Below are positions 5,563-59,199 of a DNA stretch of 64,000 nt, piece by piece; position 1 is the first letter of the stretch, and each line of letters begins with the position of its first letter. Source of the stretch: Bacteroidales bacterium H4 (GTDB lineage: Bacteria > Bacteroidota > Bacteroidia > Bacteroidales > Muribaculaceae); assembly GCA_001701165.1 (NCBI GenBank), contig DAAP01000044.1, forward strand, positions 2,008 to 66,007. Direction: 5' to 3'. The translations under genes were made by a program, and so were the position numbers. The notes under the pieces are model-generated. The model was given only the letters and a program-made list of their open reading frames with translations, searched no databases and was not told where the DNA came from.

Positions 5563-6003
5563 TTATTCGCCGGGCACTACCTTGTCAAGATACCACTTGC
5601 CGCCGATGCGTTTAAACTCGAAAGTGTGTGTCACGTACGAGTCCACCCATCCACAGTCAAGGTATACCTGCGTGTACTGGATTTCGCCCCAAGCCTGATA
5701 GTATTCGTCATCGTCCTTGGCAAAGGGCCGCTTGGCCGTGAAATTGTCGGGCACAAGCAGCGAAGCATATTTCTCGCGCTGGTCGTCGGTAAGACGCACA
5801 CGCGATTCCATAAATGCGGAATCCGTGGAGAATTTGCCGATGAAGGTCTTGAAGGCTTCGGGTCCCTGGTTGCAGGGAGCCTTGGCGGACATAACTTTGG
5901 CCACGGTGGCATCCACTTCGGCAGCGGTCTGTCCCTTTGCATCCATGGCGGTGCACATTAGCGCCGCAAGAGCAGCTATAAATAAAAACTTGCGCATAAT
6001 CAA
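5563..6003 (-). CDS. Secreted hypothetical protein
   Basis: Signal peptide MIMRKFLFIAALAALMCTAMDAKGQ. Codon usage is consistent with neighbouring genes, and the gap to rlmN is only 3 bp. Confidence 0.6.
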   Translation of the reverse strand: MIMRKFLFIAALAALMCTAMDAKGQTAAEVDATVAKVMSAKAPCNQGPEAFKTFIGKFSTDSAFMESRVRLTDDQREKYASLLVPDNFTAKRPFAKDDDEYYQAWGEIQYTQVYLDCGWVDSYVTHTFEFKRIGGKWYLDKVVPGE

Positions 6004-6081
6004 ATTGGTTTTTATTTGATTGTTATATAACGTACTATAAATCTTTCATCATCCAACGGCACATGCCCGGCATGCAACACG

Positions 6082-6519
6082 TCAGAGGGTTTCGAGTATA
6101 TGGAGTCCGACAAACAAGGTGACAAACACCAGTGCCAAAGTCCCGGCAGCAATAACCGAAGTAATGGCGAGGTTGCGCATATTGCCGGGCCGCAGACGGC
6201 AGCCTATGGCTGACAGCACTATGGCCACCACATCAAAGGACATCGAAGCCCATTCGCTGAACACCAGGAAGGCCCAGGCCAAGAGCGTGCATACCGCACC
6301 GCCTATGGCCATATAGCGCAACGCAGGAGACCGGAATACGGGGGTGGCCTCTGTCGCCTCGGCCTGCGGCATTTCTTCTGTCTCCGACATTACCTCAGCC
6401 TGCGGCATTTCCTCGGTAGGTGCAGCTGGTGCTTCCGGCATTTCGGTCTCGGAGGCCTGTAAGGACTCGGCCGGCGTGAGTTGGTCCACGGTCTTGGGTG
6501 TGTCGTTATCGGTAGTCAT
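6082..6519 (-). CDS. Membrane protein with an acidic, repetitive N-terminal tail
   Basis: N-terminal repeats (TEEMPQAE twice, plus ETEMPEAP) are followed by about four hydrophobic helices (AIGGAVCTLLAWAFLVF, VVAIVLSAIG, AITSVIAAGTLALVFVTLFVGL). Confidence 0.5.
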   Translation of the reverse strand: MTTDNDTPKTVDQLTPAESLQASETEMPEAPAAPTEEMPQAEVMSETEEMPQAEATEATPVFRSPALRYMAIGGAVCTLLAWAFLVFSEWASMSFDVVAIVLSAIGCRLRPGNMRNLAITSVIAAGTLALVFVTLFVGLHILETL

Positions 6520-10377: not shown

Positions 10378-10385
10378 TAACTTTG
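10378..10385 (+). promoter_or_regulatory. Bacteroidetes-type -7 promoter box (TAACTTTG)
   Basis: Exact match to TAnnTTTG, about 10 nt upstream of the first riboswitch helix. Confidence 0.45.
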
Positions 10386-10394
10386 CGGCGCAAA

Positions 10395-10581
10395 CAGGTG
10401 CACGGCCATCGGCCGTGCTTAAAAGGGAATCGGGTGTGAATCCCGAACAGTCCCGCTGCTGTGAGCCTCACGCCACTGTGCGTCAGCACATTGGCACGAC
10501 CTCGGGCATACGTCACTATACCGCTGCAGGCGGTACGGGAAGGCGTCCGAAGCCGGTCGGAGGCGAGTCAGAAGACCTGCC
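10395..10581 (+). ncRNA. Cobalamin (B12) riboswitch
   Basis: Reads CAGGTG...AAAAGGGAAtcgGGTGtgAAtCCcgaaCaGtCCCGCtgCTGT...GCCACTG...GGGAAGGC...AGTCAGAAGACCTGCC. The conserved core, the GCCACTG element and the B12 box are all present. The P1 helix CAGGT/ACCTG closes the element. Confidence 0.88.
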
Positions 10582-10792
10582 TGAGAGCAAAAATGCCGAT
10601 GCTCTGCCAAGGGCGTTATAGCGACGCCGGCTTGCGAGGACGAGCTCAGAGTCTCATCAGACCCGAAATTCCTGCCGGGAATATGGGCGCATTGCGCGCC
10701 GCGCGTTCCGGAGGATGCGGCAACAGCATCTGCGACATGTTTCACCCACGCCCTTGTCCGCCACTGCGGAAGGAGCACAACACATTCGTCAG

Positions 10793-51299: not shown

Positions 51300-53002
51300 A
51301 GTCTTTCTTCGATTTCGGATATTAGAGTCTGTTCGCGGCTGTCCGCCTCGGCAGCCAAGGCCTGAGCCTCACCTTTGAGTGCCTTGGCCTTGTCCGTGTC
51401 CTTGAGTCCGGCAGCATTTATCATCACGTTGAGCGCCGCACCGCGCACGGCGGCACGAGCGGCAAGTATGGCTACGCCGGCGTCCGATAGCGAATTGGGA
51501 TTGCCATCCACAGCCATAACATGCGCCACGTCAAATACTTCCATGGCGGCTTTCATAGTCTTCAGCGGCACTTGGGCGGCATATAGTGTAGCCTCCTCGA
51601 GGGCGGCGGCACGTGCGGACTTTTCCTCATCCGTGCCCTTGGGCATGGCAAATACGGCCATAATGCGGTTGAAAGCTTCGGTATCCTCGTCCACCAAAGC
51701 GAGCAGACGCTGCATCAACGCATGCCCCTTCACGGCCCAGTCGGAGAAGAATTCCCAGCGGTCGTCCCATCCGGGCTTATGCGCCGACAGGTTGGCGACC
51801 ATGGTGGCCAAAGCGGCACCCATGGCACCCATATACGCCGATACGGAGCCGCCGCCGGGCGCCGGCGATTCGCAGGCCGTCTCCTCGGCAAAGCCTTGGC
51901 AAGTAAAGTCGACGAGTTTCTTGCCGCCCTTGGGTGCCAAGAGGTCTTCAATGACTTTTTCGTGAACCTTGAAAGGTGCCAAATCCTCAAGACCGAGCGA
52001 CTTGACAGCTATCTTGATAATCTCGTCATCGCTGATACCCAGCGAGCGGCATTGCTTGCGCAGAAAATATTTGCCGGCATCCAGCAGACACGAACGCGGC
52101 ACCAGACCCACGATTTCGGTTCCGGTGACACGCAATCCGCGGCGGTCGGCGGCGCGGCACACCTCCTCGAAAGCCACGTGCAGCGGCGTGGCGCGTATGT
52201 CCGTAATATTCATCGACACCTGGGCGATGCCGTATTCTTCGATGTACCATCCTATGGCCTTGCAACCCTTGAGCGTGCCCGGAATCATCACCGGATTACC
52301 CTCGGCATCGCGTATAATCTTGCCCGTGATGGGATTACCCTCGCGGCGCGGACGTCCTTTTTCGCGGACATCAAAGGCGATGGCATTGGCGCGGCGAGTG
52401 CTGGTCGAATTGAGGTTGAAATTGACAGCAACCAGAAAGTCGCGAGCACCGACGACGGTAGCTCCGCTGCGTGCAGCCTGCTCGGTGAACTCTCCGCCAC
52501 CGAAGTCCGGCATCTCCGCCGGGTCGGTGATACGCTGAGCCAGAGCCTCGTACTCACCCTTGCGGCATACAGCCAAGTTACGGCGCTCGGGACGCAAAGC
52601 CGCCGCCTCATAGCAATACGTCGGTATCGCCAGCTCATCAGCTATACGTTTGGCAAGAGCACGAGCCATCTCGGCGCACTCCTCAAGGGTGACGCCGCTC
52701 ACCGGCACCAAAGGCAAAACATCTGTGGCGCCTATGCGCGGATGCTCGCCGTGGTGCGTACGCATATCGATAAGTTCGGAAGCCTTCTTGACAGTGCGGA
52801 AGGCCGCATCCACCACCGCCTCCGGCGTACCGGCAAAGGTCACGACCGTGCGATTGGTCGCCTTTCCGGGGTCCACGTCCAGCAGTCGGACGCCCTCGAC
52901 GTCCTCGATGCTCTTGACTATCTCTTGTATAACTTCAGGGCGGCGTCCCTCGCTGAAATTGGGGACGCACTCAATGATACGTTTCATGTTCGGGTCTGGC
53001 AC
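51296..53002 (-). CDS. ftcD: Bifunctional glutamate formimidoyltransferase / formimidoyltetrahydrofolate cyclodeaminase
   Basis: The N-terminus IIECVPNFSEGRRPEVI and HPRIGATDV are formiminotransferase blocks. The C-terminal ~200 aa helical domain (PAPGGGSVSAYMGAMGAALATMVANL) is the cyclodeaminase part. Confidence 0.9.
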   Translation of the reverse strand: MPDPNMKRIIECVPNFSEGRRPEVIQEIVKSIEDVEGVRLLDVDPGKATNRTVVTFAGTPEAVVDAAFRTVKKASELIDMRTHHGEHPRIGATDVLPLVPVSGVTLEECAEMARALAKRIADELAIPTYCYEAAALRPERRNLAVCRKGEYEALAQRITDPAEMPDFGGGEFTEQAARSGATVVGARDFLVAVNFNLNSTSTRRANAIAFDVREKGRPRREGNPITGKIIRDAEGNPVMIPGTLKGCKAIGWYIEEYGIAQVSMNITDIRATPLHVAFEEVCRAADRRGLRVTGTEIVGLVPRSCLLDAGKYFLRKQCRSLGISDDEIIKIAVKSLGLEDLAPFKVHEKVIEDLLAPKGGKKLVDFTCQGFAEETACESPAPGGGSVSAYMGAMGAALATMVANLSAHKPGWDDRWEFFSDWAVKGHALMQRLLALVDEDTEAFNRIMAVFAMPKGTDEEKSARAAALEEATLYAAQVPLKTMKAAMEVFDVAHVMAVDGNPNSLSDAGVAILAARAAVRGAALNVMINAAGLKDTDKAKALKGEAQALAAEADSREQTLISEIEERL

Positions 53003-53429
53003 TTATGTGTTTATTTGTGTTTGGTTTCGATATAGTCTGTTGTATATTCGGTATCGTTCGGTCTTGATATTACCCCCGTCGCTTACGGGAGTTCGGTTTC
53101 TCGGGTTCGGTATTTTGCCGCCATCCTCCGCGCCGAAGCCTCACGATGACATTCGGAGCACTCGGATTGCAACATTTGAGCGTCGGAAGGCGTATCAGAG
53201 GCGTCAATGTGTCACCACCGCTTCTCCTATCCTTGGCTATCCCGCCGCTTTCACTGGCAAATATAGCACTTTTCCGCCAATAATCCCGCATCATCGCCGA
53301 AAATGCCGCCGCCGTTAGTTCGACTCGCAGCTCGCCCCACATCGAACGACTCACCGCACCAATCACGTCATCCGAAAAGACGAAAAAAAATAATACGGCT
53401 GAAAATCATTTGGATATAAAAATAATTTG

Positions 53430-53437
53430 TAATTTTG
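53430..53437 (+). promoter_or_regulatory. Bacteroidetes-type -7 promoter box (TAATTTTG)
   Basis: Exact TAnnTTTG match in an ORF-free region. It would place a transcription start near 53444. Confidence 0.4.
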
Positions 53438-53509
53438 CAGCAAGGCGCAAGCGAGTGCCTTGATATTGTGATAGGATTCTAATCCTGTTCTCCGTAACAT
53501 AAATAAAAA

Positions 53510-53719
53510 GCGTTTCGTGCTTTATCCTTTAACGGAAATCGCCAAATTTCAAAACTACGAGGGATATAGGCAGTCAAAGGAACGCCATGCTTGTCGCATA
53601 TCCGCTCCCCGGCAAGGGGGAGTATATCCGATAAGGCGTGGGAGTGGACTGTTTATTTCGTAGTAGGCGTTTGGCGATGCCTCCGTTAAGATAAACTGAA
53701 CATGCTCCACGCTTTTTTT
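53510..53719 (+). ncRNA. Candidate structured RNA of ~200 nt (extended rod), ending in a U-tract; family not identified
   Basis: Nested complementary segments:
- 53510-13 with 53709-12.
- 53521-26 with 53690-95.
- 53527-36 with 53682-90.
- 53538-46 with 53670-78.
- 53554-60 with 53658-64.
- 53571-75 with 53647-51.
- 53582-86 with 53635-39.
- Apical hairpin CTCCCC-GGCAA-GGGGAG at 53605-53621.
TTTTTTT follows at 53713-53719. No ORF is listed on either strand between 53366 and 53782. Confidence 0.4.
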
Positions 53720-53781
53720 ATATAGCTAACTCTAATCAGGCCGGTCGGAGCATACTGCCTTAAAACTAATGTTCTAATCAC

Positions 53782-56700
53782 ATGTTCAGATTTACTTCTT
53801 TGCGGTATGTGCTATTGGCACTTGCTGTGATGGGACTGTTCGGTGTGCCTGATGTGTCGGCTCAGTTTTCCGGCGCCGGCGCGGGCACAAAGGATGACCC
53901 ATACAAAATCTACAATCCGGCACAGCTGAACCAAGTGCGTAATTACACGGGGAAAACAGACGTGTATTTCACGCTTGGCGCAGATATCGACCTGACCTCA
54001 TGGATTTCCTCTAATTCGCCGGAACAGGGATGGAATCCTATCGGCACGGATGCCAATCCGTTCAAGGGTACTTTTAGCGGCAACGGACACACCATCAAAG
54101 GCATGTCTATCTTACGAGGATCGACCGATGATGTGGGCTTCTTCGGTGTAGCATCGGGTGCCACCATCTCCAACTTGACAATCGAAGGCTCGGTCAACGG
54201 AGGGAATAATGTCGGCATCCTTGCCGGATACTTCACCGGCATAATAGAAAACTGCCGTGCAAAAGGCTCGGTCAACGGATTGTCAGACTGTGTCGGCGGA
54301 CTTATCGGAAAGTCCGGGAACTCGGACATTAAGACCTGCCGGGCAGACGCGACGGTAAAAGGCACTGACTATGTCGGCGGACTTATCGGATATGTTCTCG
54401 CTGGAAAAACATCATCCAATAAAGCTATAGACAATTGCTTTGCAAGTGGAACTGTAGATGGTCGCTCAAATGTCGGCGGCCTCATAGGCGCTATGGATGC
54501 GACGGTATTCGTTCAGTTTGAGCCTTACAATTCTAGTTCTGATTACCATCAAAGCGATTATTACAGTACCGTAGCACTATATAAATACAGTATATCCAAT
54601 TGCGGCGTGAAATGTGCTGTTTCTGCGCAGTCAGCTTCAACGGGTGGATTGATAGGCAAACTCTCTGGCGGTGCGTATATATACAGGTACAATGGTTCTA
54701 GCGTTTCTATTTATAATGGTAATAGCAGCTCCATTTCAGACTGCGTAAATCTTTCAAAATGCGTAAGCGTCAAAGGCTGCTTTGCTTTGGCACAGATTAA
54801 TGCAAAAAGAGACAACATTGGCGGCATCATTGGCGATTGCGAATGTGCCGATATTATGGATAGCTATTTCAATGGCTCTATAATCGGAGGTAAAAAAGTC
54901 GGCGGAATTTGTGGCACTAATGATGCCGTAACAACTGTTACAGTAAAAACGCTTGACGGCAAAACATATCCCAACAAAGCGCGGCCCAAAGAAATAACTA
55001 TAAATTGGACAGGTGTCTCGACTATCTCGCGTAATTACAGCCGTGGCACGATTGCAGGCAGCGAATACGTGGGCGGTATCATCGGCAATATCACGTCAAA
55101 TGCGACCGTAACATCCAACTTCGCCCTCAATCCGGTATTGAGCGCATCCGTAGGCCCTGTGGCACGTATATCACCCACGACAACCGACGGCTTCGGTGCT
55201 ATAGGCAGCCTGACAACCAATTATACCCTTACCGGCGCCAAGGTATCGAAGAATGGTGTATCGCAAACCTACTCGACAAAACTCAGCGAAGGCGAGTCCG
55301 GAGGTGAGGATATGTTCAAGCTACGTGCGACATACCAGGGTCTTGGATGGGATTTCGATAAGGAATGGGCGATACAAGAGACCGAGTGCCTGCCATACAA
55401 GAGCGGGCAGTGCGTTCCGCCGCTAATCCAGTCGGAACCGGTGTCGGGAAGTTTTATCATCGTAGGCAAGAGTATGTCCGGCGGACGTGTATTCATGGAA
55501 TATGCCGGACAGACTTATTCGGCCGAATGTAAGGATAATACATGGACGGTACGAACCGATCCGATGAAATCCGGCGAGAGCATAACTGCATGGGTCGAGG
55601 CCGACGACAAGCTCCCGAGCTACAGCGTAATGACTTCTGTCGGCTATCCCGGCAGCGGCACACAGGAAGATCCGTATCAGATATATACTGCAAATGACCT
55701 ACAAAACATCAACGGCCATTCGTGGTACAAACTGATGAACGATATCGACCTCAATGGCGTGAAATGGCAACCGATAGGACGTAACGGCGCGACTATGGCC
55801 AACCTTGACGGCGGCGGTTTCACCATTAAGAATCTCAATGTCAAAGATTCCGCATCTGACTTCTGCGGCTTGTTCTCCACTCTCCAAGACGCCACGATTA
55901 CCAATCTCACGCTGGAAGGATGCACCGTTGACGGCGGCAGCAAAACGGCAGTACTTGCCGGAGATATGACTTCGTGTACCATATCTAATGTCACGATAAT
56001 CAAGGCCAACGTCAAGGGCGATGCCAATGTGGGTGCTCTTGCCGGCAATGCCTATTATTGCACTTTGCAAAATGTGCAGGTACTGGAATCCACTATCGGA
56101 GGAAGCTCCTTGGTCGGCGGTATCGTCGGCACGGCAGACCGTTTGGACATCACACTTTCCTCGTTCAACGGTGACGTTACAGGGTCCGGAAATGTCGGCG
56201 GCATCTGCGCCAAGGCAAATTCCGCAACAAAAATTTCGCGCAGTTGTACCTCCGGAACGGTGACGGGTACAGGCACGGACACAAAGGCCGCAGGTATCGT
56301 AGCCGAAAGCCGAGCCTATGTCACGGACTGTTTCACAACGGCAAATATCTCCGCTCCGGGATATGTCGGCGGTATTGTCGGTCTAAATTACGCCTCGGTT
56401 TCCAATTGCTATGCGTCCGGAACATTATCGAGCGAAACTCTCGCCGCAGGCATCGTTGCATATAATGACGGCGCTTCGGCTACGCTGAAAAACTCGGCGG
56501 CCGCCAGTGAGAAAATATCGGTATCCTCGCAGTCGGGTAATGCCATGCGCGTTCTCGGCGGTTTCCGTAATGGCGCTCCCGAACCTGTAACAGCCGAGAA
56601 TCTTGCGCTCGAAAAGATGATAGTATCTATTAACGGCGTGGCACAAGAAGTATACGATGACCCGATGAATGGCACTGCCACCTCCGGCGACAAGCTCCGT

Positions 56701-59199
56701 CAATCAGCCACCTACAAGACTCTTGGCTGGGATTTCGCGACAACATGGCAGATTGGCGAAACCGAAATGCCTCAACTTATCGGTCTCGATACAACCGGAG
56801 GAGCCGAACGCCGTGACAATTATATGTATGTAGACAAAATGAGTGCCGCAGCAGGCGAAACCTTTGATATCATCGTCAATCTACATAACGGTGACGCCGT
56901 CAACGGCTTCCAGTTTGATATTCAGCTGCCGACAGGTGTTTCTCTCGTTTATGACGAAGATTTTGAGGAATATGACTATACAAAGGGCACACGTCTGACA
57001 CGCAATCACTCTATATCTTTCCGTAAACAGCCTGACGGTTCGGTACGATTCTTGTGTCTTCCCAAGGACGCCACATACAACCTCCTCGGCGATGACGGAC
57101 AAATCTTGATATTGAAGGCAAAGGCAGATGACAATGCAATAAACGGCTCTTATGCTTTCTTACTCAAGAACTGCTTCCTCTCTCGCGGTGTCGCCGAGAA
57201 TGTTGTACTCAATAAGGTTTCCGGCAACATCTACATTGTCAACGATGTAATATCTATACCGGCTGTTACCGCCATGGCCGGAAGCAAAAGTGATTTGGTC
57301 GTCAATTTGGACAACAAATCGAAAATCAACAGCTTCCAATTTGACATGACCCTTCCTGCCGGCGTGAAAATAGCCGACAACGCTCTCGGCGAACCTGATA
57401 TCCGCTTGGGCGACCGTATCGATAAGTCAAAGTATACATTGACATATAAGGCACAACCTGACGGCTCGATGCGTATCGTGGCCTTTGGCGCCGGAAGTGA
57501 TGCTGTTATTACCGGCAATACAGGCACAGTTCTATACGTCACACTCGCTGTAGACAAACAGACCAAGCCTTTCAACGGACAAGTTTCGTTCCGCAATATT
57601 TATCTTGCAGACAGTGAACTGCGCAGCTTTACGTGTGAGGATATAGACGCACAAATAGAGGTGACACAATTCCGTCGCAAAGGCGATGTCAATAAGGATG
57701 GAACCATTACAGGCGTAGATGCCGTAGGCACTATTAATCTATCCCTAAACAAATCGTTGGACATCCTGGACTTCTGGGCCGCTGATGTCATAGAAGACAA
57801 CATAATTGACTCGCGTGATGTTTCATCAGTTACATCACTCGTCCTCGATGAAAATCTTACGACTTATGCAGCCGCAAAATTCGCAAAAATCCGTAAGGCA
57901 GACGATGTATGGGGCGATTACGAGTACACCAAAGACATCTGCATGTGGGTGAAACCCGTAAACGTTTCGCCGGGTAATACCGCCGATTTTATATTCTATC
58001 TCAACAACACCAAGGAGCATCGTCCCAGCGCTACGCAATGGGCCATTGATTTGCCGGAAGGATTCAGCTTTGAGCTGAACGAAAACCCGGTAGATGCAGA
58101 CGACCTATGGTATGAGAATACGCGCCGTTGCAGCGAGTTCCTGTTTGTCGCACATGTGCAAGGACAAAAAATCGGAATGTTCCACAACGATATGAATGTT
58201 AAGGGCTATAAGCTAACGACAGGCGAAATTATGCGTCTGCATATCGTGGCCGACAAGTCTGTCAAGCCCGGTGTCTATACGGGCTGGTTGCGAGATTATC
58301 AAACCACATGCCCGGTTGACGCTCAGGGATTTCACGCCAGCTTCTATATCGACGATGAGCCCTTCACTATTGTCGTGGGAGACATCGCTAATGTGGAGAA
58401 TTTATCCCTTGCCGGTCGCTTCGATTCTGACGATATGGCTCTTGTGGATGCAGCACTGCACAACAACTCATCACTGCTGACAGTAGATCTGACTGAGAAT
58501 AGGGCAATCCCCGAAGGCACTTCAATCGAAGGACTTAACCCCAATACAATTGTTTATGCCAACGCCGCTACAACAATTGAGAAGTCCGACAATTTGGTCG
58601 TTGACGGGATTTGCAAATCGTTAAAACTGGAAGACGGACATCCGTTTGGCGTTACAACAGCGTTTACGGCGACATCTGCTTTATACTCACGGCAGGTCGA
58701 AGCCGGAGCGCACGAATCTCTGTATCTGCCGTTTGCAGCAGACCCGATTGAAGGTGTTACGTACAAACAGATTGCGGGAGTTTCAACGGACAACTTTGTG
58801 CTTGAAGATGCAGTTCAATCAGCCAATACTCCGGTCTTGTTCAATTCGGAATTTGGAGGTGCGCTTAGATTTACCGCAACAAATGTCACTATAGAACCCG
58901 CTACAGAAACAGTACATAACGAGCTTGTCGGCAACTATAGAATTGTCGACACCGATAAGGTTTATTATGGTTATAGTGCCGGTTCATTTGTGAAAACTTT
59001 GCGCTTGATGCCGTTCAGAGCATACACAACAAACGCCGAGCTGGACGGAAAACACGAGACCGTTAATGACTTGCTTTATAATACCGATTCTGATAATGAC
59101 GTAATATACAATCTGCAAGGCATCCGGATGCATACGGATAAAAAGAACCTTACAACCGGGCTGTATATCATTAACGGACAAAAGGTTTATATCAAGTAA
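53782..59199 (+). CDS. Giant T9SS cargo protein: two GLUG-repeat regions, two or three cohesin-like modules, a dockerin module and a T9SS CTD
   Basis: Signal peptide ...MGLFGVPDVSAQ. Many GLUG-type repeats (VGGLIG, VGGIIG, VGGICG, VGGIVG); each region opens with DPY-x-I-x(4)-L. Cohesin-like modules contain FQFDIQLPTGV and FQFDMTLPAGV. Dockerin EF-hand pair: GDVNKDGTITGVDAVGTINL ... ADVIEDNIIDSRDVSSVTSLVL. The CTD ends ...VIYNLQGIRMHTDKKNLTTGLYIINGQKVYIK. Confidence 0.8.
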   Translation: MFRFTSLRYVLLALAVMGLFGVPDVSAQFSGAGAGTKDDPYKIYNPAQLNQVRNYTGKTDVYFTLGADIDLTSWISSNSPEQGWNPIGTDANPFKGTFSGNGHTIKGMSILRGSTDDVGFFGVASGATISNLTIEGSVNGGNNVGILAGYFTGIIENCRAKGSVNGLSDCVGGLIGKSGNSDIKTCRADATVKGTDYVGGLIGYVLAGKTSSNKAIDNCFASGTVDGRSNVGGLIGAMDATVFVQFEPYNSSSDYHQSDYYSTVALYKYSISNCGVKCAVSAQSASTGGLIGKLSGGAYIYRYNGSSVSIYNGNSSSISDCVNLSKCVSVKGCFALAQINAKRDNIGGIIGDCECADIMDSYFNGSIIGGKKVGGICGTNDAVTTVTVKTLDGKTYPNKARPKEITINWTGVSTISRNYSRGTIAGSEYVGGIIGNITSNATVTSNFALNPVLSASVGPVARISPTTTDGFGAIGSLTTNYTLTGAKVSKNGVSQTYSTKLSEGESGGEDMFKLRATYQGLGWDFDKEWAIQETECLPYKSGQCVPPLIQSEPVSGSFIIVGKSMSGGRVFMEYAGQTYSAECKDNTWTVRTDPMKSGESITAWVEADDKLPSYSVMTSVGYPGSGTQEDPYQIYTANDLQNINGHSWYKLMNDIDLNGVKWQPIGRNGATMANLDGGGFTIKNLNVKDSASDFCGLFSTLQDATITNLTLEGCTVDGGSKTAVLAGDMTSCTISNVTIIKANVKGDANVGALAGNAYYCTLQNVQVLESTIGGSSLVGGIVGTADRLDITLSSFNGDVTGSGNVGGICAKANSATKISRSCTSGTVTGTGTDTKAAGIVAESRAYVTDCFTTANISAPGYVGGIVGLNYASVSNCYASGTLSSETLAAGIVAYNDGASATLKNSAAASEKISVSSQSGNAMRVLGGFRNGAPEPVTAENLALEKMIVSINGVAQEVYDDPMNGTATSGDKLRQSATYKTLGWDFATTWQIGETEMPQLIGLDTTGGAERRDNYMYVDKMSAAAGETFDIIVNLHNGDAVNGFQFDIQLPTGVSLVYDEDFEEYDYTKGTRLTRNHSISFRKQPDGSVRFLCLPKDATYNLLGDDGQILILKAKADDNAINGSYAFLLKNCFLSRGVAENVVLNKVSGNIYIVNDVISIPAVTAMAGSKSDLVVNLDNKSKINSFQFDMTLPAGVKIADNALGEPDIRLGDRIDKSKYTLTYKAQPDGSMRIVAFGAGSDAVITGNTGTVLYVTLAVDKQTKPFNGQVSFRNIYLADSELRSFTCEDIDAQIEVTQFRRKGDVNKDGTITGVDAVGTINLSLNKSLDILDFWAADVIEDNIIDSRDVSSVTSLVLDENLTTYAAAKFAKIRKADDVWGDYEYTKDICMWVKPVNVSPGNTADFIFYLNNTKEHRPSATQWAIDLPEGFSFELNENPVDADDLWYENTRRCSEFLFVAHVQGQKIGMFHNDMNVKGYKLTTGEIMRLHIVADKSVKPGVYTGWLRDYQTTCPVDAQGFHASFYIDDEPFTIVVGDIANVENLSLAGRFDSDDMALVDAALHNNSSLLTVDLTENRAIPEGTSIEGLNPNTIVYANAATTIEKSDNLVVDGICKSLKLEDGHPFGVTTAFTATSALYSRQVEAGAHESLYLPFAADPIEGVTYKQIAGVSTDNFVLEDAVQSANTPVLFNSEFGGALRFTATNVTIEPATETVHNELVGNYRIVDTDKVYYGYSAGSFVKTLRLMPFRAYTTNAELDGKHETVNDLLYNTDSDNDVIYNLQGIRMHTDKKNLTTGLYIINGQKVYIK

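Follow-up and report, generated by a model that had tools for sequence, protein, structure and literature searches.

A multicopy leader RNA family of Bacteroidales with two alternative folds: a candidate zipper-type transcription attenuator

Gut Bacteroidales remodel their cell surface under the control of DNA inversions, NusG-like antiterminators, sigma/anti-sigma pairs, and a few small RNAs (sRNAs). In the capsule loci of Bacteroides, the NusG-like protein UpxY mediates antitermination at 5' untranslated regions; this control is locus-specific, and the factor is encoded by the first gene of the operon. A further route to deciding between termination and read-through within a long leader is represented by cATTpLS20, the zipper-type attenuator of the Bacillus subtilis plasmid pLS20 and related Gram-positive conjugative plasmids (Gonzalez-Alvarez et al., NAR 2026, PMC13401043). 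The rod of cATTpLS20 is the antiterminator and the default structure in vitro, and a protein that stabilizes the upstream hairpin has been proposed (PMC13401043). Termination at cATTpLS20 has been shown to rise when the upstream hairpin is strengthened or an oligonucleotide against the 5' strand is added. Here, we describe an RNA element in the gap between ftcD and a gene for a large GLUG-repeat protein in Bacteroidales bacterium H4 (contig DAAP01000044.1). The element is a member of a large, multicopy Bacteroidales RNA family outside Rfam, and it can adopt a covarying rod or a conserved alternative fold that ends in a putative terminator. All coordinates are positions in the window, i.e., the whole 64,000-nucleotide (nt) stretch of DNA that was analyzed (Table 1).

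The family shares with cATTpLS20 a long, imperfect, and extensible central stem-loop, a weaker upstream hairpin, and a downstream intrinsic terminator, as well as complementary upstream and downstream arms whose zipping is here predicted to abolish both hairpins. There is no sequence relationship between the two. Our copies reside on Bacteroidales chromosomes rather than on Gram-positive plasmids, with no blastn match in PLSDB, and they occur in multiple copies before about 50 or more unrelated genes, mostly for exported proteins, instead of before one conjugation operon (conAn1). Structurally, the entire 5' half and the entire 3' half in our family pair either internally or with each other, an extra downstream hairpin carries a loop that pairs with the leader, and the rod exceeds the local fold in stability by ~11 kcal/mol, whereas the two states are isoenergetic in cATTpLS20. 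By analogy, the leader family would work like a zipper-type attenuator without being a member of the cATTpLS20 family.

In trp-type attenuators, T-box leaders, and riboswitch platforms, too, alternative folds exclude each other, and one of them closes with a stem and a U-tract before a gene. In contrast to these classical attenuators, the family has neither a conserved leader peptide nor a specifier or T-box sequence, is not followed by aminoacyl-tRNA synthetase or biosynthetic genes, and shows no conserved unpaired pocket and no Rfam match. With UpxY-controlled loci it would share post-initiation control of Bacteroidales surface genes via long 5' leaders, but here a single conserved RNA precedes numerous single genes at unlinked sites, and the leader copies examined have no NusG-like gene beside them.

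Two conserved folds and a downstream loop interaction

A first-pass annotation, made from the sequence alone, had proposed a ~200-nt rod of nested helices around an apical CTCCCC/GGGGAG hairpin and had suggested folding and covariation analysis as a check. Both analyses bear out the rod, henceforth termed fold A, as an imperfect structure of ~210 nt. Its minimum free energy (MFE) is -87 kcal/mol, compared to -57.5 +/- 4.4 kcal/mol in 200 dinucleotide shuffles (z = -6.6), and is thus beyond chance. The two strands are not equivalent: the minus strand folds with -71.5 kcal/mol, and a covariance model assigns 211 bits to the forward and 28 bits to the reverse strand. Such strand asymmetry is expected where G-U pairs matter and points to an RNA that is read from the plus strand.

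The first six sequences of the family, each folded singly, all gave the same rod. In 98 distinct Muribaculaceae copies (alignment A4), pairing covers 87.6% of cells, and both sides change in 43 of the 75 rod pairs. One rod helix is hypervariable yet 98% paired in these copies, with a single pair that reads CG in 41, AU in 31, and UA in 21 of them. Across Bacteroidales (alignment A7, 86 rows including 84 forward copies), the proportion of paired cells is 87.7%, and 71 of 75 rod pairs show compensatory change on both sides. The corresponding covariation score of 0.399 compares with 0.152 in shuffled and ~0.05 in slid controls. The apical hairpin, in which pairs also covary, is common to both folds and is missing from family members of ~165 nt.

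In the alternative structure, fold B, each half pairs with itself; RNAalifold on six sequences returned this fold and not the rod. The alternative 5' hairpin competes with the rod, and its basal stem is 91% paired in A4 and 97% paired in A7. Folded alone, the 5' half reaches a mean z of -2.8, with z < -2 in 80% of copies, and the 3' half a mean z of -3.7, with z < -2 in 98% of copies. The alternative 3' hairpin has an energy of -30.7 kcal/mol in the window copy, and its basal stem, the candidate terminator stem, is 97.7% paired in the 98 copies and 90.6% paired at the order level. Nested inside it lies a local hairpin that excludes the rod helix AUCGCCAAA/UUUGGCGAU. Pairing of this local hairpin (GGCGUU/GAUGCC) reaches 97.8% in A4, and the hairpin covaries at the order level, where pair 312/323 reads UA in 47 and CG in 17 copies and pair 314/321 reads UA in 58 and CG in 15. 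Pair 312/323 takes part in no rod pair, i.e., a helix that is specific to fold B covaries in its own right. The excluded rod helix covaries too.

A run of seven T directly after the rod, which the first-pass annotation had also reported, is present. At least five T within the 8 nt after ACGC are found in 96% of Muribaculaceae and 90% of order-level copies, and the tract is richer in T than its partner in the rod, an A-run, is in A (6.1 T versus 4.4-4.9 A per 8). Together, the 3' hairpin and the U-tract would constitute an intrinsic terminator. A simple terminator scanner detected neither of the two long hairpins, which its loop limit excludes. Columns conserved in at least 90% of copies all fall into segments that have partners in both folds, and none of these columns is unpaired in both. 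The strong sequence conservation can thus be attributed to segments that serve two alternative partners, and no ligand pocket is needed to explain it.

Beyond the U-tract, hairpin P4 presents a loop that is complementary to a segment overlapping the 3' strand of the putative terminator; this segment of 8-9 nt lies immediately 5' of the closing strand of the rod. Duplexes formed between the two partners of the same copy are stronger than those between partners of different copies, with -8.9 versus -6.6 kcal/mol in Muribaculaceae (Wilcoxon p = 1e-12) and -8.4 versus -6.5 kcal/mol at the order level (p = 1e-6). Compensatory variants of the interaction include CAUUCC/GGAAUG, CGUUCC/GGAACG, CGUCCC/GGGACG, and AGUCCC/GGGACU. 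A local stem of 3 bp or more encloses the complementary segment in 62/80 and 30/47 copies, and the P4 stems themselves vary among copies (UUGCCUUU/AAAGGCAA, GUCUG/CAGAC, CUUUCC/GGAAAG). This conserved pairing past the U-tract argues that the element is a leader, since a free-standing sRNA ending at the tract would not need it.

Family distribution and downstream genes

For all covariance searches, we used a single model, R1, built from six copies and the rod structure; the resulting genome tallies are lower bounds. R1 finds full-length, strand-specific matches in 67 of 121 genus genomes, with 1-6 copies each. Across Bacteroidales and with strict filters, it recovers the family in 71 of 301 genomes and in 55 of 209 genera, about a quarter. 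A 26-base pattern locates more than 120 loci in a species-representative genome collection, nearly all of them in Muribaculaceae; carriers identified in this way include the cultured species Duncaniella muris (DSM 103720; L093), Lepagella muris (L058), and Xylanibacter rodentium (L049). Family members fall into size classes of ~165, 200-220, and 265 nt that differ by the apical extension.

The window's own genome contains a second copy with 83% identity on contig C15, and a DNA profile of order-level copies detects at least eight superfamily members in this genome. A TAnnTTTG box accompanies seven of these eight, and an open reading frame (ORF) follows in all eight. Each of the seven further members (Table 1) adopts the rod fold, at lengths of ~170-180, ~215, or ~265 nt. 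Six of these seven have TAnnTTTG upstream, and in five the next ORF begins with an N-terminal hydrophobic export signal.

The first-pass annotation had been unable to place the RNA in Rfam and had named a cmscan search as a check, which likewise yielded no family. With Rfam 15, the whole window gives only a cobalamin riboswitch (10379-10598) at the gathering threshold, a scan of 52990-53800 at E <= 10 returns only microRNA and small nucleolar RNA matches at chance level, and 12 distant family copies have no Rfam match. Full-text searches of the searchable literature recovered no description of the leader family, and blastn against GenBank phages and PLSDB plasmids gave no match. The covariance model could be used to annotate hundreds of currently empty intergenic regions in gut metagenomes.

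The position of the element relative to genes is regular. The next ORF lies on the same strand in 88 of 99 copies, with its ATG a median of 53 nt past the rod. The proteins encoded downstream form 54 unrelated clusters that are enriched in exported products: an N-terminal export signal is found in 64 of 86 downstream proteins (74%), compared to 30% of genome ORFs with the same heuristic (p = 6e-17), and a lipobox in 30% compared to 7%. Pfam families and features among these products include PEGA, GLUG, DUF5036, BspA-LRR, BACON, LysM, and type IX secretion system (T9SS) tails. About 12% are small Cro/C1-like helix-turn-helix (HTH) proteins, whose genes are often followed by lipoprotein genes.

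The GLUG gene behind the window copy is accessory, with an ortholog in 2 of 61 genus genomes and the leader directly upstream in both. Homology between the window (53380-53445) and the copy at locus L084 begins ~55 nt upstream of the -7 promoter box, and the unit therefore includes the promoter. Judged from these sequence comparisons, the promoter seems to travel together with its leader and gene.

Several side observations concern individual copies. Locus L084 (DLLT01000053.1), in another metagenome-assembled genome, has the same leader and GLUG gene in a different genomic neighborhood. The HTH proteins, which are the commonest non-exported product behind the leader, comprise 72-87 amino acids (aa) with the motif M(I/V)HIG..IK..F...NC.R.N(I/V)Y.IF (loci L040, L049, L055, L059, L061, L070, L077, L033, L038, and L028); Pfam and NCBIfam provide only weak HTH_26 and HigA matches for them. 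A single IMG/VR match, L160 (IMGVR_UViG_3300045988_114140, 5897-6108, minus strand), is degenerate, with a poorly aligned 3' closing-strand/terminator region; it has no adjacent same-strand gene, and its neighbors are genes for phage-like HTH regulators. At locus L166 (G329:C1), a match to the thiamine pyrophosphate (TPP) riboswitch at 1965-2054 on the plus strand scores 53.8 bits against a gathering threshold of 54.3 bits; this match lies ~265 nt from the leader copy and on the opposite strand.

Proposed mechanism and competing explanations

On balance, we consider it likely, albeit far from certain, that the region from 53430 to ~53781 represents a promoter and a ~335-nt 5' leader that functions as a zipper-type transcription attenuator with the rod as its read-through state. 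In fold A, the two halves would zip downward from the apical hairpin and sequester GGCGUGGG as soon as it is made. Only a weak A-U/GCGU closing stem would then remain at the U-tract, and RNA polymerase would continue. In fold B, each half would pair with itself, the G+C-rich stem GGCGUGGG/CUCCACGC would abut the U-tract, and transcription would stop before the gene. Read-through is probably the default (ON) state: as the prefix grows, its MFE fold zips progressively into the rod, and the best local-only fold is on average 11 kcal/mol less stable than the rod. The OFF switch would be a factor, such as a protein or another RNA, or a kinetic effect that stabilizes the 5' hairpin and blocks zipping. 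In read-through transcripts, the P4 loop would pair with nucleotides directly 5' of the terminator's 3' strand and thereby hold the rod state just 5' of the start codon. The leader probably sets the expression of the gene downstream. The first-pass annotation had raised the possibility of a terminator-containing leader, attenuator or riboswitch-like, for what it called the giant T9SS gene that starts 62 nt downstream; the attenuator part agrees with the two folds and the stem before the U-tract, while the riboswitch-like part found no pocket to support it.

A number of observations weigh against attenuation. The rod is far ahead at equilibrium, and termination would be possible only with the help of a factor or through a kinetic trap. 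Fitting of the alignments to the rod model biases the counts toward the rod. With the exception of the local hairpin, the fold B helices are nearly invariant, i.e., they are conserved and not compensatory, and the inner ones are just 64-71% paired at the order level. Finally, the termination decision precedes the loop interaction, which fits control of translation or stability at least equally well. This last point leads to an alternative in which the leader acts post-transcriptionally, on translation initiation or mRNA stability, and the U-tract is merely the 3' strand of the rod base. P4 and its loop interaction, which precede the start codon by 20-40 nt and can form in full-length transcripts only, would suit such a role, as would the pairing of the U-tract with a 5' A-run in the rod and the thermodynamic dominance of the rod. 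Yet the T-tract surpasses the A-run with which it pairs in both richness and conservation, and it is preceded in 91-98% of copies by a G+C-rich stem of 8-9 bp; this is the anatomy of an intrinsic terminator, which translational control does not need, and we regard a purely post-transcriptional leader as unlikely. The element could also be a free-standing, trans-acting sRNA of ~275 nt that extends from promoter to U-tract and whose proximity to genes is incidental or reflects a dual function as leader. An own promoter box and U-tract, the occurrence of multiple, mutually similar copies that resemble the paralogous FopS RNAs (PMC11697453), and the hypervariable helix 5, which could confer specificity, would all be in line with this idea. 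However, covarying pairing extends ~45 nt past the U-tract, orientation and spacing to the next ORF are fixed (88/99; median 53 nt), and no conserved unpaired segment resembles a seed, which together make a free-standing sRNA decidedly improbable.

The features that suggest an attenuator, namely two alternative folds with a terminator in a large conserved RNA, would equally be found in a riboswitch whose rod or alternative fold binds a small molecule. We consider this very unlikely given that no pocket is evident (no column conserved in at least 90% of copies is unpaired in both folds), that the 54 functionally unrelated downstream clusters have no common metabolic theme, that the apical third is dispensable in members of ~165 nt, and that no Rfam model matches. 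A role at the DNA level, as a palindromic miniature inverted-repeat transposable element or as a site of inversion or recombination close to genes for surface proteins, would explain a long, multicopy inverted repeat beside accessory genes in varied neighborhoods, including the leader and GLUG gene of L084 in another context. It is highly improbable in light of the strand preference (-87 versus -71.5 kcal/mol; 211 versus 28 bits), the fixed orientation to the gene (88/99), covariation that keeps RNA pairs, including G-U intermediates, and the conservation of two alternative RNA folds. The first-pass annotation had further noted a resemblance to 6S RNA (RF00013, RF01685), with which the element shares its size and overall rod shape. 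6S RNA is a housekeeping RNA that occurs in one or two copies in essentially every genome independently of its neighbors; its large central bubble mimics an open promoter, and it binds RNA polymerase and templates product RNAs (pRNAs). In favor of a divergent 6S RNA are the ~200-nt rod with internal loops, the own promoter, and the U-tract, together with the finding that RF00013 has no match elsewhere in the genome, where a whole-genome search at E <= 10 was negative. Nevertheless, neither 6S nor any other Rfam model matches the element, at least eight copies are present in this genome, a search with stricter filters left 54 of 121 genus genomes without a detected copy, the copies are linked in cis to a downstream gene, structure continues past the U-tract, and the central loop is merely 9 x 5 nt in size and located in a segment that has an alternative partner. 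We thus assign this idea a next to negligible probability.

Returning to zipper-type attenuation, one uncatalogued RNA family fronts several genes per genome, mostly for lipoproteins, T9SS cargo, and other exported proteins; should the mechanism hold as proposed, it would represent a major unrecognized layer of surface control. Zipper-type attenuation, which was described only in 2026 and for Gram-positive plasmids, would then also reach a further phylum and accessory genes on chromosomes. A more speculative and, in our estimation, doubtful extension is that the family serves as a portable, order-wide checkpoint, either with one trans-acting factor (a protein or a terminated leader RNA) that would bind to the invariant segments of the 5' hairpin and terminator and set termination simultaneously at all copies, or through kinetic phase variation at the RNA level. 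If true, such a checkpoint would place newly acquired genes for surface and secreted proteins of gut Bacteroidales in a post-initiation regulon, and kinetic partitioning would provide cell-surface diversification without DNA inversion.

Promoter region, minor elements, and neighboring features

The promoter box and the two small hairpins that the first-pass annotation had listed upstream of the rod were recovered at the same positions (Table 1), in support of its overall picture of a structured RNA equipped with a promoter box and a U-tract. The box reads TAATTTTG and is of the Bacteroidetes -7 type; transcription would start at ~53444-53447. A TAnnTTTG box lies 35-75 nt 5' of the rod in nearly all Muribaculaceae copies (n = 97) and is found 5' of the rod in 54 of 74 order-level copies. 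Between promoter and rod, most family copies have one variable hairpin, and the lineage of the window copy has two, P0a and P0b. In the orthologous copies L011, L012, and L084, the P0a stem is compensatorily changed to CGAAAUG/CGUUUCG with retention of the loop. The conserved (G)ACAUAU motif immediately 5' of the rod, present in most Muribaculaceae copies and in 36 of 74 order-level copies, may extend the rod base by pairing with (C)GUAU after the U-tract. The gap contains no conserved ORF, as anticipated by the first-pass annotation, which had seen no convincing one. With respect to a leader peptide, the rod contains a single ATG frame of 15 codons, which starts at 53587; short family members lack this frame and read ACGCUCACGC at its position.

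Table 1. Features of the leader locus (window positions) and further family members in the same genome (contig positions)
Feature	Position	Strand	Remarks
Possible -33 element, TTTG	53409-53412	+	Candidate promoter part
Promoter box TAATTTTG	53430-53437	+	Bacteroidetes-type -7; read directly from sequence
5' hairpin P0a	53441-53462	+	Stem CAAGGC/GCCUUG, loop GCAAGCGAGU
5' hairpin P0b	53473-53487	+	AGGAUU-CUA-AAUCCU
ACAUAAAU	53497-53504	+	Local form of the (G)ACAUAU motif
Rod (fold A)	53505-53719	+	5' half 53505-53591 pairs with 3' half 53634-53717
Alternative 5' hairpin (fold B)	53510-53585	+	Basal stem GCGUUUC 53510-53516 / GGAACGC 53579-53585
Apical hairpin, CUCCCC/GGGGAG	53592-53633	+	In both folds
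Alternative 3' hairpin (fold B)	53635-53713	+	Basal stem GGCGUGGG (53635-53642) / CUCCACGC(U) (53705-53713); putative intrinsic terminator
Local hairpin in 3' hairpin	53665-53682	+	AGGCGUU-UGGC-GAUGCCU
AUGCUCC	53702-53708	+	5' partner of the long-range loop interaction
U-tract, seven T	53713-53719	+	Read from sequence
Hairpin P4	53738-53760	+	Stem AGGC 53738-53741 / GCCU 53757-53760
P4 loop GGAGCAU	53747-53753	+	Complementary to 53702-53708; ~30 nt past the U-tract
GLUG-repeat protein gene (putatively controlled)	53782-59199	+	ATG at 53782; 1805 aa, Pfam Glug, signal peptide MFRFTSLRYVLLALAVMGLFGVPDVSAQ
Further member	C15:132010-132230	-	
Further member	C46:1447-1617	-	
Further member	C9:82085-82256	+	
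Further member	C15:122432-122612	-	
Further member	C23:7685-7946	-	
Further member	C27:6364-6631	+	
Further member	C62:2350-2612	-	

Two groups of described Bacteroides thetaiotaomicron sRNAs were considered. FopS RNAs act in trans, measure 65-70 nt, and have a single-stranded seed (PMC11697453). With FopS and GibS, the leader shares multiple copies, sigma-ABfr-type promoters, and a link to the outer membrane or surface (PMC11697453), whereas the leader element is 165-270 nt long, fully structured, and linked in cis to its gene; an identity with these unrelated 65-70-nt RNAs was rejected. BTnc020, BTnc054, and BTnc213 (NC_004663, 600281-600474, 1551169-1551352, and 4930650-4930838, respectively) belong to a six-member family of near-identical, RbpB-bound sRNAs of 184-194 nt beside transposases or invertases (PMC11697453 and its supplement). 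By their description, they look associated with insertion sequences rather than leader-like.

A second candidate leader is suggested on the other side of the gap. On the minus strand, a TATATTTG box is provided by GCTATATTTGCC, the reverse complement of 53257-53268, and precedes the ftcD start (53002) by ~250 nt. The stretch between this box and ftcD (window 53003-53270) has no Rfam match, e.g., to the tetrahydrofolate (THF) riboswitch. Its strong conservation in two further species (L011, L012) suggests that the ftcD/hut operon has a long, conserved 5' leader.

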